Shown here piece by piece: positions 1-8,389 of a DNA stretch of 8,389 nucleotides (positions are counted from its first letter, which is position 1; each line of letters starts with the position of its first letter). Below the pieces are notes generated by a model. That model searched no databases, was not told where the DNA came from, and worked only from the letters and a program-made list of their open reading frames with translations. The position numbers and the translations under genes are program-made. Origin of the DNA: a virus. The stretch lies in the UHGV virus genome UHGV-1378212, one strand, 5' to 3'.

Positions 1-55
1 GGACGGATTACCATCAATGTACAAATGTGTCGCTTTACCTTCGCCATTAGATCCT
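1..55. repeat. Terminal direct repeat, copy 1 (identical to 8288-8342): assembly overlap of a circular genome
   Basis: 55-nt string ggacggattaccatcaatgtacaaatgtgtcgctttaccttcgccattagatcct occurs at 1-55 and again at 8288-8342; sequence diverges only where adapter begins. Confidence 0.9.
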
Positions 56-213
56 ATCGATCGTACTTTCATCGTTGCTTCATGCGAGCCGCGAACAGTC
101 AGTCGCTTAACGGTTTCCCACTCAATTGCACCGTCAGCATCAACGCTGACAACACTCCCCGCCGGAAGCGGTTTGTGTGTGCAAGGGAAAATCCCGGTAA
201 GCCAATCGATCAC
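1..213 (-). CDS. II: Replication initiation (nicking) protein gene II, N-terminal segment; joins 7448-8342 across the circular junction (about 350 aa total). Likely GTG start at 211-213
   Basis: Hand translation of minus strand from 213 downward gives (M)IDWLTGIFPCTHKPLPAGSVVSVDADGAIEWETVKRLTVRGSHEATMKVRSIGSNGEGKATHLYIDGN..., continuous with the 287-aa ORF at 7448-8311; starts MID like recalled M13 pII; SD-like GAGGA 7 nt upstream of GTG; in-frame stop at 262-264 bounds the ORF; alternative GTG at 253-255 lacks an SD. Confidence 0.75.
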   Translation of the reverse strand, partial: MIDWLTGIFPCTHKPLPAGSVVSVDADGAIEWETVKRLTVRGSHEATMKVRSIGSNGEGKATHLYIDGNPS

Positions 214-382
214 GAATAAATCCTCAAAATTGCAAAAATGACGACTTACTAACACATGAGTTCAGTAGTTCATTAGTGTTTTAACATTACATCAGTGAGC
301 TAGTGAGTTCAAGAGGCTTGGATGATATGAGTTCATGAGCATGTATACTCACTTCAAATATTGCATTGAACGAGCGTAAAAA
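214..382. promoter_or_regulatory. Divergent control region between gene II (minus) and the plus-strand cassette; contains iterated ATGAGTTCA/GTGAGTTCA motifs; candidate operator and/or plus-strand origin
   Basis: TGAGTTCA at 257-264, 304-311, 328-335 (9-mer ATGAGTTCA exact at 256-264 and 327-335); tandem AGTGAG at 294-299 and 302-307; TATACT -10-like hexamer at 344-349; divergent gene starts at 213 (minus) and 383 (plus). Confidence 0.45.
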
Positions 383-565
383 ATGGCAAAGCGCACGACT
401 TATAACGTGACGGAAGAAAGAAAAATGAAACTAGAACGACTGGCTATAAATGCCAGTGTAAAACTAGGAAAAACAATTACATGGACAGAGATTTTAGGTT
501 ATCTGATTGATAACTACTCTAAAGATGCAGCAGAAGATCTCATGTCTGCCAAACAAAAGGATTAA
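383..565 (+). CDS. Small DNA-binding protein, ribbon-helix-helix (CopG/Arc-like) candidate; possible repressor
   Basis: 60-aa ORF MAKRTTYNVTEERKMKLERLAINASVKLGKTITWTEILGYLIDNY...; N-terminal basic beta-strand (KRTTYNV) followed by two predicted helices with G-x-T at helix-2 start fits RHH pattern; no clear SD (possible leaderless or weak RBS); first gene of a terminated plus-strand operon. Confidence 0.45.
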   Translation: MAKRTTYNVTEERKMKLERLAINASVKLGKTITWTEILGYLIDNYSKDAAEDLMSAKQKD

Positions 566-610
566 GTACCACGAATGGTACAAACGTGCAGTATTACCAA
601 CACTGCACGT
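566..610 (+). promoter_or_regulatory. Two adjacent perfect stem-loops immediately after the RHH gene stop
   Basis: Hairpin 1: GTACCA-cgaa-TGGTAC at 566-581; hairpin 2: ACGTGCAGT-attaccaac-ACTGCACGT at 584-610, followed by T-rich tctagtttgt. Confidence 0.5.
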
Positions 611-680
611 TCTAGTTTGTGCAAAACTTAAACAAAAAGTAAGTCATCGAGATAAACAAAACGAGTCAAAGTATATACTG

Positions 681-821
681 ATGAATACGCCAAAAAAAAG
701 TGAACAAAAACAGAATGATAAGCAACAAGGCTTTGCCCAAGATGGTTTGGACACATCTAAAGCAAAAAGGCTTTTAGAAAAAGCTCAACAATCCACTACT
801 AAACCAACACAAGGAAAGTAA
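681..821 (+). CDS. Hypothetical small hydrophilic protein (46 aa), Lys/Gln-rich; C-terminal motif shared with the next ORF
   Basis: ATG at 681 is the first plausible start after the RHH stop within the 507-821 ORF; stop TAA 819-821 sits 1 nt before the next ATG (823); C-terminal GLDTSKAKRLLEKAQQS resembles GLNTSKASSLLAKIQSQS of the next ORF; no SD seen. Confidence 0.35.
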   Translation: MNTPKKSEQKQNDKQQGFAQDGLDTSKAKRLLEKAQQSTTKPTQGK

Positions 822-822
822 T

Positions 823-1098
823 ATGTTATCTTTTCAGGTTTTCCTTTTTAAAAAAGCATTAGAGGAAGAATTAGATATAATCAAATGGCATCCAACAAAT
901 GAACAATTGGAGGAGATGTTCAATGAGATAAAAAAACTCAGTGGCAATGAAAGCATCACTGAAGTTGAAAATATCGTTCATCGAATTTACAAAAAACCGA
1001 TTACAAGAATGATTTGTAATGGATTGAATACATCGAAAGCAAGTTCGCTATTGGCAAAAATTCAATCCCAGTCAAATAACACTCAACAAAAAAGATAG
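823..1098 (+). CDS. Hypothetical protein (91 aa)
   Basis: ORF MLSFQVFLFKKALEEELDIIKWHPTNEQLEEMFNEIKK...; SD-like AGGAAAG 6 nt upstream of ATG; stop TAG 1096-1098 overlaps the next start (GTG 1098); C-terminal motif paralogous to previous ORF. Confidence 0.55.
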   Translation: MLSFQVFLFKKALEEELDIIKWHPTNEQLEEMFNEIKKLSGNESITEVENIVHRIYKKPITRMICNGLNTSKASSLLAKIQSQSNNTQQKR

Positions 1099-1802
1099 TG
1101 AAATCAGATATGGATGTTCACGGTATCATTGATAATCAAAAAAAAGAAATTGAGCGTTTATATGAAAAATATACTGAGTCATTAGAGTGTTACCTATCTG
1201 GTAAATGTGATTTTGATACCGTGAATTCATGTGGAGACAGTTTTTTCGGCTATTTAGAACACTGCGCTGCACATAACAGAACAGTAGATGAATTAAATAA
1301 TACTCAATGGAATCAATGGCTTGCAGAAACATGCATTGATGTTCTTCACCTTATCTTAGCTCATTACAAAAAATATAGAGAGGTAATGAATGATAATAGT
1401 ATTAAACCAAGCTCCACTGCTTTTGCTTCAATGCAAAGGATAGTAAAAGCCCATGACAAACGTTCTGCAAAAGAAATAAGGAATCTTTTCGTTAATGAAG
1501 ATATGCCAGTATATGGATTTGACAATAAAGGAAAAGAAAAATTGACAAAAGCACACGAGAGAATAGCGGCATTTAGCTTTGGCATTTTACTTGTTATTCT
1601 TTTTATAATAATCGCAATATTTATACCTAATCCAACGAACTTTCAATACACTTTCTTTCGAATAATTCTTTCAGCAGCAGTTGCTGGGGTAGTCTCATTT
1701 ATACCCGGGTTTATAGAAGTCAAAATATCAAACTGGGTAAGAGCAGGTGGAGCATTAGCTGTATTTGTGATTGTCTATTACGTGGCTCCCGCAGCATTAT
1801 GA
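1098..1802 (+). CDS. Hypothetical membrane protein: Cys-rich soluble N-terminal domain (~165 aa) plus three predicted C-terminal transmembrane helices; candidate effector/exclusion protein
   Basis: 234-aa ORF (GTG 1098, alternative ATG 1110); hydrophobic stretches AAFSFGILLVILFIIIAIFIP, FFRIILSAAVAGVVSFIPGFI, AGGALAVFVIVYYVAPAAL at the C-terminus; five Cys in the N-terminal domain; followed by an intrinsic terminator. Confidence 0.6.
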   Translation: MKSDMDVHGIIDNQKKEIERLYEKYTESLECYLSGKCDFDTVNSCGDSFFGYLEHCAAHNRTVDELNNTQWNQWLAETCIDVLHLILAHYKKYREVMNDNSIKPSSTAFASMQRIVKAHDKRSAKEIRNLFVNEDMPVYGFDNKGKEKLTKAHERIAAFSFGILLVILFIIIAIFIPNPTNFQYTFFRIILSAAVAGVVSFIPGFIEVKISNWVRAGGALAVFVIVYYVAPAAL

Positions 1803-1832
1803 ATTGGTTCGCACAATGACGTTATGCTAAAG

Positions 1833-1870
1833 AGGCCGCTGCGGGATTCTATTTTCGCAGCGGCCTTTTC
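1833..1870 (+). terminator. Rho-independent terminator of the plus-strand cassette (possibly bidirectional, between convergent genes)
   Basis: Perfect 11-bp stem AGGCCGCTGCG (1833-1843) / CGCAGCGGCCT (1856-1866), 12-nt loop, followed by TTTT (1867-1870); lies between orf234 stop (1802) and the convergent minus-strand orf77 stop (1938). Confidence 0.75.
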
Positions 1871-1937
1871 AACATAACGAGTCGTACATTATGCGCACCA
1901 ATGGTAAGGATGGTGGGAACTGGCGTTACCGGTGCCG

Positions 1938-2171
1938 TCATTGGTCACAGACCGTAATCCACTGGCCCAGGACGTCTTTCAGGCAATGTTGGCATAAATC
2001 CAGTTTTAAGCGATTACTGTCACCAAAAATTGAACCGTATCCAGCTAAGTGATTAACAGACAGAAACTCATTGAACTCAATGTCATCTACCACCGTCTTC
2101 GCATGGCGACCACAGCGATCGCAGGTCTTCGCACATAACATTACAGTATCGCTGGATGTGAAAAATTGCAT
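1938..2171 (-). CDS. Hypothetical zinc-ribbon protein (77 aa) with two CxxC pairs
   Basis: ORF MQFFTSSDTVMLCAKTCDRCGRHAKTVVDDIEFNEFLSVNHLAGYGSIFGDSNRLKLDLCQHCLKDVLGQWITVCDQ; CDRC and CQHC separated by ~41 residues; strong SD GAGGAG 5 nt upstream of ATG (minus strand). Confidence 0.65.
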   Translation of the reverse strand: MQFFTSSDTVMLCAKTCDRCGRHAKTVVDDIEFNEFLSVNHLAGYGSIFGDSNRLKLDLCQHCLKDVLGQWITVCDQ

Positions 2172-2244
2172 TTTATCTCCTCGTAATGCTGCCGCGCCGA
2201 ATCAGCAATAACGCTAAAAAAACAGAATTGTTCGGCTTGGCCAA

Positions 2245-2285
2245 CCCCGGACACTAACAAAAGCAAGTTTTGTCACTGTCCGGGG
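2245..2285 (-). other. Stem-loop between orf102 and orf77 (possible terminator/attenuator or single-strand origin hairpin)
   Basis: CCCCGGACA (2245-2253) pairs with TGTCCGGGG (2277-2285); inner ACAAAA/TTTTGT pairing in the loop; a run of seven T on the phage strand lies ~30 nt downstream. Confidence 0.45.
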
Positions 2286-2288
2286 TTA

Positions 2289-2597
2289 TCATATAAACCA
2301 ATAGACCGTCCTTACGCCATTCTGGTTATCAATAACATAGCCGCATTGTTTCCTTAAAAATTCTTCTGCTAAATCAATGGCTTTTAAAGAAATCTCATAA
2401 GAAGGAAGTAAAGTGTATCCTTTCCCTTCACTGGCAGCTGCTTTGATCGCATCCAGAGTATTATCAATCAGTAACAGAGCAAGTGATGCTTCATTTACCT
2501 GAGCCGAAGAACTTCTGGCTGCAAGTGTCATTGTTTTTGCTTCTTCCGCTGTAATCGTTCGTTCTGCCAGAGCAGATAAAATCCCATAAGAATCCAT
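2289..2597 (-). CDS. Hypothetical protein (102 aa), phage-sense cargo gene
   Basis: ORF MDSYGILSALAERTITAEEAKTMTLAARSSSAQVNEASLALLLIDNTLDAIKAAASEGKGYTLLPSYEISLKAIDLAEEFLRKQCGYVIDNQNGVRTVYWFI; SD-like GGGGT 6 nt upstream of ATG; no family recognised. Confidence 0.55.
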   Translation of the reverse strand: MDSYGILSALAERTITAEEAKTMTLAARSSSAQVNEASLALLLIDNTLDAIKAAASEGKGYTLLPSYEISLKAIDLAEEFLRKQCGYVIDNQNGVRTVYWFI

Positions 2598-2617
2598 TAG
2601 TTACCCCAATCAATAAT

Positions 2618-2677
2618 GTCCATTTGATGGATAGCGAGCAGGGCTCACGCACCTACCCGCTATCCATCAAAGTGGAC
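2618..2677 (-). terminator. Long imperfect hairpin at the 3' end of gene IV: candidate gene IV terminator and/or packaging-signal hairpin
   Basis: GTCCATTTGATGGATAGCG (2618-2636) pairs with CGCTATCCATCAAAGTGGAC (2658-2677) with one bulged base, ~21-nt loop; overlaps the gene IV stop (2667-2669); in Ff phages the packaging signal is a long hairpin directly after gene IV. Confidence 0.5.
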
Positions 2678-3932
2678 GAATGATATGTGCTGTAAGCAAA
2701 ATATACATAATACGCTGTTCATTGCTGTCTGCCTTGCTACTGAAAATCCAGCCTATAAGAGGAATTTTACTTATAACTGGAACTGAACGCTCAGCATTGC
2801 TAAACGATGAATCGATAAGCCCCCCCAATAACAACGTCTGACCATCCTTAATCTGGACTGTCGTCTGAATCTGGCGCTGATTAGTAATAATATCGGATGC
2901 CTGATCATCATTGCTGATTGAATCAGCGCGAGTGTCGATAGTCAGAACTAGTTGCCCGTTACCCATGACAACAGGCGTTACCTTGAGAGAAACGCCAACA
3001 TCATGACGCTCGATAGTCTGAAACGGATTATTTACCCCGGCAGATTCGCCCGTTACCTTTCCGGTGATAAACGGCACATTCTTACCTACGGAAATGTAAC
3101 CAGTCTGACCAGACTGAGTAAGAATACGCGGCGTTGAAATCACCTTAGAGCGTGAATTACTCTGGACAGCACGCAGAGACAGCGCCAACACGTTACCATC
3201 AAAAATACCAAAAGAACCGCCCGCCGTAGAAAGAGCGCTACCCAGTGCAGAAGTATTAAAGCCCCCCGCAACCTTATGACCGGATGCAGAACCTGCCGCA
3301 AACGATAAATCAACGCCATCAGACAAGCTGGTTTCAAACATCAGCGACTGAATGAGAACCTGATCGCGGGCAACATCCACAGAATTGATAAAATCGGACA
3401 GAACCGGCAGCAGCTCGTCAGGCGCAGAAACAATCAGCGAGTTATTGCCTGGATAATCCACGACATTACCACCACCATTAGAATCAAGATAAATTTTAAT
3501 CAGTTGCTGAACATCGGACGATCTAACTTTTGTCAGCTTAAAATTTCTGACCGTAAGCGCCACAGGTACTGGCTGGTAAGATGGCTCAGAAGGAAAAGTA
3601 TCATAAGACTGGTTATCAGAATCATCGGAATCCGAAACCATCTGTGAAGGTAATTTAGACGGCAAAGAGACTACCGCAGGATTGCCAGAAAGCATGACAA
3701 AACCGTTAGCATTCAGAACAGACTTAAAGAAATCATCAATATTTGTTGGATTAACATCAGCATTAAATACGGTTACGTTTCCTTTAATATCAGGATTAAC
3801 AATAACAGGCTTGCCAGTTTTTGAAGAATACCACTGAACAAATGAGCGAACAGATGAATTGTTTAAATTAACAGTTTCAGCAGAAACGCAGAATGAACAG
3901 GCAAATAAAAAAGCAACAATAACAGAGCGCAT
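2667..3932 (-). CDS. IV: Gene IV secretin (phage export channel, pIV)
   Basis: From internal ATG at 3930-3932: MRSVIVAFLFACSFCVSAETVNLNNSSVRSFVQWYSSKTGKPVIVNPDIKGNVTVF... resembles recalled M13 pIV N-terminus (signal peptide then VIEMNNSPLRDFVTWYSKQSGESVIVSPDVKGTVTVY); AGGAG upstream; the 452-aa track ORF is an upstream in-frame extension that overlaps gene I. Confidence 0.9.
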   Translation of the reverse strand: MRSVIVAFLFACSFCVSAETVNLNNSSVRSFVQWYSSKTGKPVIVNPDIKGNVTVFNADVNPTNIDDFFKSVLNANGFVMLSGNPAVVSLPSKLPSQMVSDSDDSDNQSYDTFPSEPSYQPVPVALTVRNFKLTKVRSSDVQQLIKIYLDSNGGGNVVDYPGNNSLIVSAPDELLPVLSDFINSVDVARDQVLIQSLMFETSLSDGVDLSFAAGSASGHKVAGGFNTSALGSALSTAGGSFGIFDGNVLALSLRAVQSNSRSKVISTPRILTQSGQTGYISVGKNVPFITGKVTGESAGVNNPFQTIERHDVGVSLKVTPVVMGNGQLVLTIDTRADSISNDDQASDIITNQRQIQTTVQIKDGQTLLLGGLIDSSFSNAERSVPVISKIPLIGWIFSSKADSNEQRIMYILLTAHIIRPL

Positions 3933-7447: not shown

Positions 7448-7762
7448 TTAATGCCAGCTACTGGCGTGCGAAATACGGTTGTAATCGAAAATAAAACCTT
7501 TCTCATAAATCCATAAGGGGATTTCCACTGGCTTGGCTTCCAGCGTTCTTATTAGCGGAACAACGTTATTAGAGTCTGGTGAATCACAATAGAAATTAAT
7601 ATCGATACCGAACGAAAGCAATTCTCTTCTATGGCGATAAAAAGTGTTATGAGGTAACATTTCTTTCATGTTAGCCCCTTGTTTCCAAAGTAAATAAGTT
7701 GACTGTATTTTTCTTGGCAGTTTCGTTATTTTTTCATCACTTAAAATAGCATTCTGATTCAT
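7448..7762 (-). CDS. X: Gene X (pX), in-frame internal start within gene II
   Basis: Internal ATG at 7760-7762 begins MNQNAILSDEKITKLPRK..., comparable to M13 pX start MNIYDDSAVLDAIQSK and in the equivalent position in the C-terminal third of pII. Confidence 0.55.
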   Translation of the reverse strand: MNQNAILSDEKITKLPRKIQSTYLLWKQGANMKEMLPHNTFYRHRRELLSFGIDINFYCDSPDSNNVVPLIRTLEAKPVEIPLWIYEKGFIFDYNRISHASSWH

Positions 7763-8342
7763 TTCTATTCTCCCTACATATTCAGAGAATAATTGACGTG
7801 GTGTTTTCATATTCCAGTTAGCGCCAAGCGTTAAATTTAAATCAATAAGCTCAGTTGTTCTTAATGTTAATTCAATACGTAATTTATCTTTCGTCCAGTC
7901 CAGTAACCCGGCTCGTACAAAATCTTCGGCTATCTGGTGCCCTTTTTTACCCGAAACGTGTTCATCATATTTTGAATAAAATTTCAGACTCCATCGACGG
8001 GAGTTTTTACCTAAATAAACTGTACCGCCTTTCCCACATGCGCGACCATGGCGTGTTTTAGCTTTAAATTCGGCGGCATAAAGCCATGATCTGACATTTT
8101 CTAGCGTAGATAATGAATACATGTAATTAATGTCAACACGTGAAATTTTATACTGACCTGCTATAACAGCTTTATAAGACGCTAAATCATGAGGAATATT
8201 CAATAAGGATAAAATCCTGGCATAGACCGTCAACATGAGCCCTTGTATATCATCCGACCCAACAACAGAATGCCCCTGCAAAAACTTGGACGGATTACCA
8301 TCAATGTACAAATGTGTCGCTTTACCTTCGCCATTAGATCCT
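7448..8342 (-). CDS. II: Gene II replication initiation protein, C-terminal segment (continues at 56-213 via circular junction)
   Basis: 287-aa track ORF plus upstream in-frame codons to 8342; C-terminus ...NNVVPLIRTLEAKPVEIPLWIYEKGFIFDYNRIS matches recalled M13 pII C-terminus (NNVVPLVRFINVDFSSQRPDWY); the track start at 8311 is a TTG, not the real start. Confidence 0.9.
8288..8342. repeat. Terminal direct repeat, copy 2 (identical to 1-55)
   Basis: Exact 55-nt match to window start. Confidence 0.9.
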
Positions 8343-8389
8343 GTCTCTTATACACATCTCCGAGCCCACGAGACGTAGAGGAATCTCGT
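8341..8389. other. Sequencing-library adapter read-through (Tn5 mosaic end plus Nextera adapter with an index-like 8-mer), not biological sequence
   Basis: CTGTCTCTTATACACATCT (Tn5 mosaic end) followed by CCGAGCCCACGAGAC, 8 nt GTAGAGGA, then ATCTCGT (start of ATCTCGTATGCCGTCTTCTGCTTG); begins exactly where the terminal repeat stops matching. Confidence 0.9.

Follow-up and report, generated by a model that had tools for sequence, protein, structure and literature searches.

The rstR/ig-2/rstA immunity module of CTXphi consists of a small repressor gene that lies divergent from the gene for the replication initiator, with operators in the short intergenic region between them. The module is swapped as a cassette between otherwise similar phages (heteroimmunity), and CTXphi enters the chromosome at dif by means of two dif-like sites in inverted orientation; in each of these respects it resembles the locus described below. 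The canonical RstR proteins (El Tor and classical) are helix-turn-helix (HTH) proteins that bind long operators as tetramers, and the rstA promoter (P_rstA) is co-repressed by LexA.

A second kind of precedent is the site layout of ribbon-helix-helix (RHH) proteins that bind arrays (ParG, MetJ and omega). RHH dimers occupy tandem short repeats: 8-bp boxes in the case of MetJ, and 7-bp heptads, in either orientation, in the case of omega. CopG, from the rolling-circle plasmid pMV158, represses synthesis of the rolling-circle initiator. Dimers of ParG bind cooperatively, one to each box, to arrays of tetramer boxes, direct or inverted, whose invariant 4-bp spacers give an 8-bp period, and ribbon residues 2, 4 and 6 of ParG set its DNA specificity (PMC3413123).

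The UPphi901 group of filamentous phages comprises relatives of I2-2 and IKe that integrate in tandem at dif and carry reverse-oriented ORFs adjoining dif (PMC7307601). The words repressor, RstR and operator are absent from that paper, the one publication on the group that our search found, and it names no regulator of lysogeny. For YpfPhi, the positional RstR homologue YPO2273 has been proposed as a regulator of replication, a role that "awaits experimental demonstration" (PMC4266046). Our search of the literature on RHH repressors of filamentous phages found nothing relevant.

The stretch of DNA analysed here (the window) is a circular contig of 8,389 nucleotides. Bases 1–55 recur at 8288–8342 and are followed by 47 bases of Nextera adapter (8343–8389), which stands at the ends of many unrelated phage records as well; the genome unit is therefore 8,287 bp. 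Unlike CTXphi, the phage has Ff/IKe-like morphogenesis genes, secretin included: the minus strand carries the full Ff/IKe-like set of gII, gV, gVIII, gIII, gVI, gI (Zot family) and the gIV secretin. The gene for the replication initiator pII crosses the circular junction, its 5' part occupying 1–213 and its 3' part, defined by the ORF list and Pfam, 7448–8287. It begins with a GTG at 213, the same start as in RefSeq, preceded by a Shine-Dalgarno sequence (GAGGA, 221–225, minus strand) recognized in the sequence, and specifies 350 amino acids with the Pfam domains Phage_CRI and G2P_X_C. The plus strand holds a 60-aa ORF (383–565) and three more small ORFs, all of which match PHROG families of unknown function.

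Prophages in E. coli chromosomes match the window at 99.7–100% identity; of 5,426 complete E. coli genomes, 47 match it at full length, F11, MS 200-1 and ECONIH2 among them. E. coli 85.0412 (L005, 1–14265) carries a tandem prophage array, at least two and a half copies of which lie in the fetched stretch; the array ends adjoining hipA, in the dif region, and resembles those of CTXphi and YpfPhi. A variant covering 86% of the window is found as a 7.9-kb Salmonella "plasmid" (L004), which is probably the replicative form. Dif-like sites form an inverted pair (about 1805–1832 and 1871–1902, within 1798–1913) around a hairpin with 24-bp arms, and this arrangement, at ~1805–1900, we take to be a CTXphi-style attP. 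The gene set, the tandem integration at dif and the reverse-oriented ORFs fit the published UPphi901 group (PMC7307601), and we conclude that the window is a temperate, dif-integrating UPphi-type inovirus prophage. Identity with CUS-1 or YpfPhi was considered and rejected, for all that those phages have in common with the window is the gII/gV module, and their cassette is of the HTH kind. Searches of the phage collection with distant blastn (window 1–2700) gave no match, and megablast gave only short matches to pIV and to the adapter.

Several other features of these genomes were recorded. The same ~100 bp of dif-like sequence matches some 400 mostly conjugative enterobacterial plasmids at 87–98% identity; in the one plasmid checked it stands directly after an STM4504/CBY_0614 gene, and some UPphi variants carry genes of that family as cargo. 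Cargo on the 3' side of the 60-aa gene differs between near-identical phages (window 566–1802 against L004 5067–5801): orf46, orf91 and orf234 (a predicted membrane protein) in the window, a Doc-family toxin in the Salmonella plasmid and an STM4504-family gene in other variants. A hairpin with 20-bp arms at 2623–2671, between orf102 and gIV, is like the annotated "morphogenetic signal" of I2-2 (common core CAGGGCT-ACGCACCTACCC) and is probably the packaging signal; another long hairpin lies at 2243–2287. A near-identical prophage copy (60-aa protein 100% and pII 98% identical) occurs on a contig binned as "Candidatus Nanosynbacter" (L014, JARKOR010000214.1), a label that is almost certainly a binning error.

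Exactly 169 bp (214–382) separate the GTG at 213, where gII starts on the minus strand, from the ATG at 383, where the 60-aa ORF starts. A preliminary description of the locus reported three copies of TGAGTTCA in this interval, and these indeed stand on the plus strand at 257–264, 304–311 and 328–335; two of them extend, as had been said, to the 9-mer ATGAGTTCA (256–264 and 327–335), the remaining copy reading GTGAGTTCA. In dinucleotide-preserving shuffles of the whole 8.4-kb window, 0.30 copies of TGAGTTCA are expected on both strands together. Four are observed, a number reached in none of 200 shuffles, and three of these exact 8-mers fall within 80 bp. The fourth (2072–2079, minus strand) lies inside orf77 and is kept in close relatives; it is probably a chance occurrence.

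The exact 8-mers do not stand alone: degenerate copies flank them in strict 8-bp register at 249–256 (CTAACACA), 265–272 (GTAGTTCA), 296–303 (TGAGCTAG) and 336–343 (TGAGCATG). The AGTGAG pair that had also been reported is present (294–299 and 302–307) and amounts to two adjoining 8-bp boxes. Seven boxes are thus arranged in three clusters, in which the exact 8-mers are the best-preserved units. We designate the clusters putative operators O3, O2 and O1. O3 (249–272) comprises three tandem boxes, CTAACACA, TGAGTTCA and GTAGTTCA, which follow the proposed promoter of gII and precede its start; O2 (296–311), with two tandem boxes, TGAGCTAG and TGAGTTCA, overlaps the proposed gII –35; and O1 (328–343), with TGAGTTCA and TGAGCATG in tandem, abuts the proposed –10 of the 60-aa gene. 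The distance between O1 and O2 is 24 bp, or three box lengths (3 × 8), and homologous clusters to all three are found in 8-bp register in relatives.

The structure model of the 60-aa protein resembles RHH proteins, with an N-terminal beta-strand followed by two helices (beta-alpha-alpha); the predicted ribbon, KRTTYNVT, spans residues 3–10. The model comprises a single chain; that the protein dimerises is an assumption based on the fold class. The protein belongs to no Pfam family and has no sequence match in PDB, a Foldseek search returned nothing, and BLASTP against ParG gave no alignment. The family profile, compared with the ParG RHH domain (1P94) by hhalign, gave an E-value of 9e-5 with a probability of only 59%, and placed KRTTYNVT opposite the ParG ribbon KRVNVNFD. 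MetJ, omega and CopG show no detectable sequence relationship to the protein and have other box sequences, and MetJ, moreover, needs a corepressor.

With tblastn, three kinds of homologue were found: an ORF of If1 that lies unannotated in its "major intergenic region" (58% identity), the "RstR-like putative transcriptional regulator" of Vibrio phage VAI1 (42%), and the "environmental RstR" or "RstR-like protein, repressor of rstA transcription" of CTXphi variants GQ466611 and GU942563 (41%). Both VAI1 and CTXphi VC106 have the gene in divergent orientation to rstA. The matches include neither of the canonical RstR proteins, El Tor or classical. Judged by these alignments, the 60-aa protein is a homologue of the RHH-type "RstR-like" alleles and stands outside the canonical RstR family of CTXphi, whose members differ from it in being HTH proteins. 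The family is small, amounting to ~70 clusters (at 50% identity) in a set of 1.84 billion representatives. Its sequence is conserved in the helices (ERLAI..., WTD/E-I-x-NYLIDNY) and variable in the ribbon. The exact 60-aa protein is present on at least 1,000 contigs.

The likeness to the divergent rstR/rstA layout that the preliminary description had pointed out is accordingly borne out, by the homology (41–42% to RstR-like proteins), by the same divergent position and by an upstream box that is repeated three times there too. The accompanying remark that such a layout would be unexpected for an Ff/IKe-type phage did not hold: the window is a dif-integrating temperate UPphi-type prophage (PMC7307601), and If1 and I2-2 too carry unannotated homologues of the small gene. 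In If1 (L001, NC_001954; 5119–7316) the homologue runs from 5322 to 5119 on the minus strand. "ORF348" of If1 and a 147-aa ORF are an IS200/IS605 element (Y1_Tnp plus OrfB_IS605/TnpB), which sits between the RHH homologue and its box/promoter region beside the replication gene. The homologue in I2-2 (L013, NC_001332; 2720–3090) is divergent from gII and frameshifted; the frameshift may be real, or it may be a sequencing error in an old record, and an intact homologue of the I2-2 protein (P0121) exists elsewhere.

Whether the boxes serve the small protein or pII can be judged from relatives. Loci were fetched with progressively more distant RHH homologues, some of them on metagenomic or draft contigs. 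In records from Brenneria, Phytobacter, Scandinavium, Providencia and other enterobacterial or metagenomic sources, the RHH protein is 59–98% identical to that of the window and the ribbon reads K-R-x-T-Y-N-V-T throughout. All loci with this ribbon carry intergenic TGAGTTCA or TGAACTCA at three matching positions from the ATG, the third box being degenerate in L017. Measured from the RHH ATG, the boxes lie at about –126, –79 and –55 in the window, –120, –73 and –49 in L010, –119, –74 and –50 in L008, and –122, –77 and –52 in L006. L015, L016 and L010 share the 47/24 spacing of the window, and L008 and L006 have 45/24 to 45/25; in L017 exact copies occupy the first two positions, 46 bp apart. 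Additional boxes in relatives stand exactly 8 bp away, and orientation flips between lineages: O2 of L008 is a perfect 16-bp palindrome (TGAACTCATGAGTTCA), and elsewhere the box occurs in either orientation (TGAACTCA).

In order to quantify conservation we aligned seven lineages with RHH proteins 59–98% identical, counting a column as conserved where at least six of the seven sequences agreed. By this measure 73% of columns in the boxes and 92% in the exact 8-mers are conserved, against 32% in the intergenic columns between and around the boxes. Beyond this region, each locus has no copy of the 8-mer or next to none.

The replication proteins of these loci are of different kinds. The TYNVT ribbon and its TGARYTCA boxes occur with three replication lineages: the I2-2-type pII of the window, an If1-type Rep, and Rep_trans (PF02486) in L017. 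The If1-type Rep of L006, L008, L010 and L011 belongs to the same Pfam family as the pII of the window and yields no significant BLASTP match to it (E ≥ 0.009). Conversely, the Rep of L010 is 86% identical to that of If1, and If1 has the ribbon TMAIV with GCATGTAT-type boxes instead. If1, Pectobacterium L021 and Rosenbergiella L024 share a ribbon of TMAIV or TMAIT and GCATGTATGC-type boxes, which are in 8-bp register in L024; TGAGTTCA was not found in any of the three. I2-2, the pII of which is 56% identical to that of the window, has the ribbon TASIT and, upstream of gII, a perfect 18-bp palindrome (ATACGTGTATACACGTAT). VAI1 and CTXphi VC106 have the ribbon TVRIN and three GCATGC boxes, located in VC106 at –111, –83 and –60 from the ATG. 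Four ribbon classes therefore pair with four box types: TYNVT with TGARYTCA, TMAIV/TMAIT with GCATGTATGC, TASIT with ATACGTGTATACACGTAT, and TVRIN with GCATGC. The boxes track the ribbon of the RHH protein and not the replication protein, which suggests that they belong to the small regulator rather than to pII.

The same pairing bears on the possibility that a host transcription factor, such as a regulator of the SlyA/RovA type or another global regulator, uses the boxes to control the gII promoter. There is a precedent in YpfPhi, whose genes are repressed by RovA; this regulator binds to a putative promoter region belonging to the replication gene YPO2274 (PMC4266046). However, the boxes vary with the phage ribbon inside a single host range (the E. 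coli phages If1, I2-2 and CUS-1 differ) and are constant over hosts from Providencia to Escherichia, and their tandem 8-bp, orientation-free arrangement suits an RHH array. We regard control by a host factor as very unlikely.

The preliminary description had offered, as an alternative, that the repeats are binding sites for pII at the plus-strand origin; the TGAGTTCA copies would then be recognition repeats comparable to the beta, gamma and delta repeats beside the Ff nick site. The Ff origin lies directly upstream of gII, which is where the TGAGTTCA repeats stand and where Ff (f1/M13) likewise has short repeats. The pII of the window is a Phage_CRI protein, and the phage sense strand reads TGAACTCA, which may loosely resemble the Ff TGGACTC repeat. 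Against this, one box type accompanies three lineages of replication protein, while the box is missing upstream of gII where pII is 56–85% identical (I2-2, 56%; UTI89, 85%), and L010 and If1, with Reps 86% identical, have different boxes; unlike the repeats of Ff, then, the boxes do not co-vary with pII. The Ff nick-site consensus is also missing. Alignment with the IKe/Ff origin region had been proposed as a means of locating the nick site; a search with GTTCTTTAATAGTGGACTC gave no match at up to three mismatches, and the 12-mer core was no commoner than expected by chance, with none within 214–382. At chance level, this search means that the origin is not locatable by similarity. Predicted single-stranded structure of the intergenic strand is ordinary (z = +1.2). 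Taken with the ribbon-linked distribution of the boxes, these data leave the origin reading extremely improbable.

What tracks pII type is a different element, a conserved block at 555–634 that contains a hairpin at 583–611 (AACGTGCAGTATT-ACC-AACACTGCACGTT, z = –2.9). It is the only non-coding sequence that the window has in common with UTI89 (CUS-1) and I2-2, phages with an I2-2-type pII (~82–91% conserved), and it is absent from loci with If1-type Rep. It lies outside the putative operators and is a reasonable candidate for a pII-specific cis element, possibly the plus-strand origin. In CTXphi the origin is on the far side of rstR. Literature on origin mapping in I2-2 yielded nothing relevant.

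A comparison with CUS-1-type prophages provides a further view of the region. In 114 E. coli genomes, UTI89 among them, pII is 85% identical to that of the window over its full length (350 aa in UTI89). UTI89 and the window lose nucleotide similarity at window 212, where gII starts, and regain it at 555, directly at the conserved hairpin block. Between the breaks UTI89 has an unrelated intergenic region, without TGAGTTCA, and a gene for a 148-aa HTH_3/cI-like protein. The UTI89 prophage, too, is integrated at dif, and this gene fills the very slot of the 60-aa gene, flanked on one side by the similar gII (85% identity) and on the other by the hairpin block; it is an alternative cassette and not a homologue of the 60-aa gene. 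YPO2273 of YpfPhi is presumably its counterpart. On the evidence of this block replacement, window 213–554, comprising the putative operators and the RHH gene, behaves as an immunity cassette that is swapped as a unit, with the 555–634 block directly outside it. The ribbon-linked boxes and the block swap together point to the boxes as putative operators of an exchangeable immunity cassette and not as origin sites for pII.

Two further roles for the RHH protein itself were weighed. In the first, it is a ParG-like centromere binder, and the replicative-form plasmid is stabilised through the boxes as its partition site. ParG is the only known protein reached by the sequence profile, and its centromere, parH, is likewise built of box arrays with an 8-bp period. 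ParG (plasmid TP228; OF operator and parH) resembles the system proposed here in being an RHH protein that binds short-box arrays at this period and represses its own promoter (PMC3413123). Yet its partition role with the partner ParF and its long N-terminal tail have no equivalent in the window, and its core box is ACTC with AT-rich spacers, as against TGARYTCA with CATG-like junctions. None of the ORFs of the 8.3-kb genome is assigned by Pfam or PHROG to a ParA/ParF-type ATPase. Every relative has the RHH gene where rstR would stand, pointing away from the replication gene, the boxes overlap likely promoters, and in CUS-1 the gene is exchanged for that of an HTH cI-type repressor, all of which makes a partition function highly unlikely.

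In the second, the cargo operon downstream is all that the boxes serve, with the protein as its antitoxin-like autoregulator. Each lineage has cargo genes of its own, but all have the RHH gene, the boxes and the divergent replication gene; in neither I2-2 nor If1 is a partner toxin gene recognisable on the downstream side; and the conserved hairpin block stands between the RHH gene and the cargo. This role, too, we consider highly improbable.

The reading that we favor, and hold to be likely, is that the TGAGTTCA repeats are operator boxes for the 60-aa RHH protein (383–565), an RstR-like homologue that would silence the prophage. Consensus scans of the intergenic region suggest where it might act. 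For the RHH gene we propose a plus-strand promoter at 322–349, with a –35 of ATGATA (322–327), a 16-nt spacer and a –10 of TATACT (344–349). The last is the best –10 on the plus strand and aligns with TATACT, TAGAAT or TATAAT in relatives, although the scan did not find the promoter again in L010, L008 or L006. For gII we propose a minus-strand promoter at 284–312, with a –35 of TTGAAC (312–307), a 17-nt spacer and a –10 of TAATGT (289–284). Its –35 is invariant in a five-locus alignment, and among the relatives the scan found this promoter in L006 only (TTGAAC-18-TATATT). Because the scans are inconsistent among relatives, both positions are offered as proposals.

On these premises a mechanism can be outlined. 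One RHH dimer would bind each 8-bp box (consensus TGA-R-Y-TCA, in either orientation) by inserting its two-stranded ribbon, KRTTYNVT, into the major groove, and dimers on neighboring boxes, 8 bp from center to center, would bind cooperatively; the proposed coating of O1, O2 and O3 follows the analogy with ParG. At O1 (328–343) the protein would occupy the spacer and –35 region of its own promoter, resulting in autoregulation. At O2 (296–311) it would occupy the gII –35, and at O3 (249–272) the stretch just downstream, about +5 to +28 of the gII transcript; occupancy of both would prevent expression of the replication initiator and of the genes that follow gII in transcription. The dif-integrated prophage would then remain quiescent, and the lysogen would be immune to superinfection by phages with the same cassette. 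That the protein binds the boxes, in what stoichiometry its dimers do so, where the promoters lie and that regulation is by repression are what we infer from the sequence comparisons and the structure model.

Silencing of this kind would not be absolute. UPphi901 lysogens release virions spontaneously (PMC7307601), which implies that repression is incomplete or regulated. There is no LexA (SOS) box in the intergenic region, unlike the situation in CTXphi with its LexA co-repression, so that induction, if any, would proceed differently from that of CTXphi.

The immunity module of the rstR/ig-2/rstA type and the site layout of RHH array binders are known kinds. New here are a putative regulator, with its operators, for phages of the UPphi type, a series of ribbons each matched to its boxes, and comparative evidence that points to movement of the cassette between replication modules. 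A broader scenario may be entertained, though tentatively and with rather more doubt than confidence: a portable heteroimmunity cassette has moved among at least three replication lineages in inoviruses of Enterobacterales and Vibrio, diversifying mainly by joint change of ribbon and box, and the "non-temperate" phages If1 and I2-2 are descendants of temperate phages with a broken switch (through the IS element in If1 and the frameshift in I2-2).

For the biology of these phages, the putative repressor, the seven boxes and the limits of the cassette provide a testable model of how UPphi-type prophages are silenced. The model predicts mutual immunity groups, for example UPphi against CUS-1/YpfPhi, and bears on the shuffling of replication and immunity modules among filamentous phages. 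The pairs of ribbons and boxes form a natural series on a conserved scaffold, which should be useful for working out rules of RHH specificity, as has been done with ParG chimeras.
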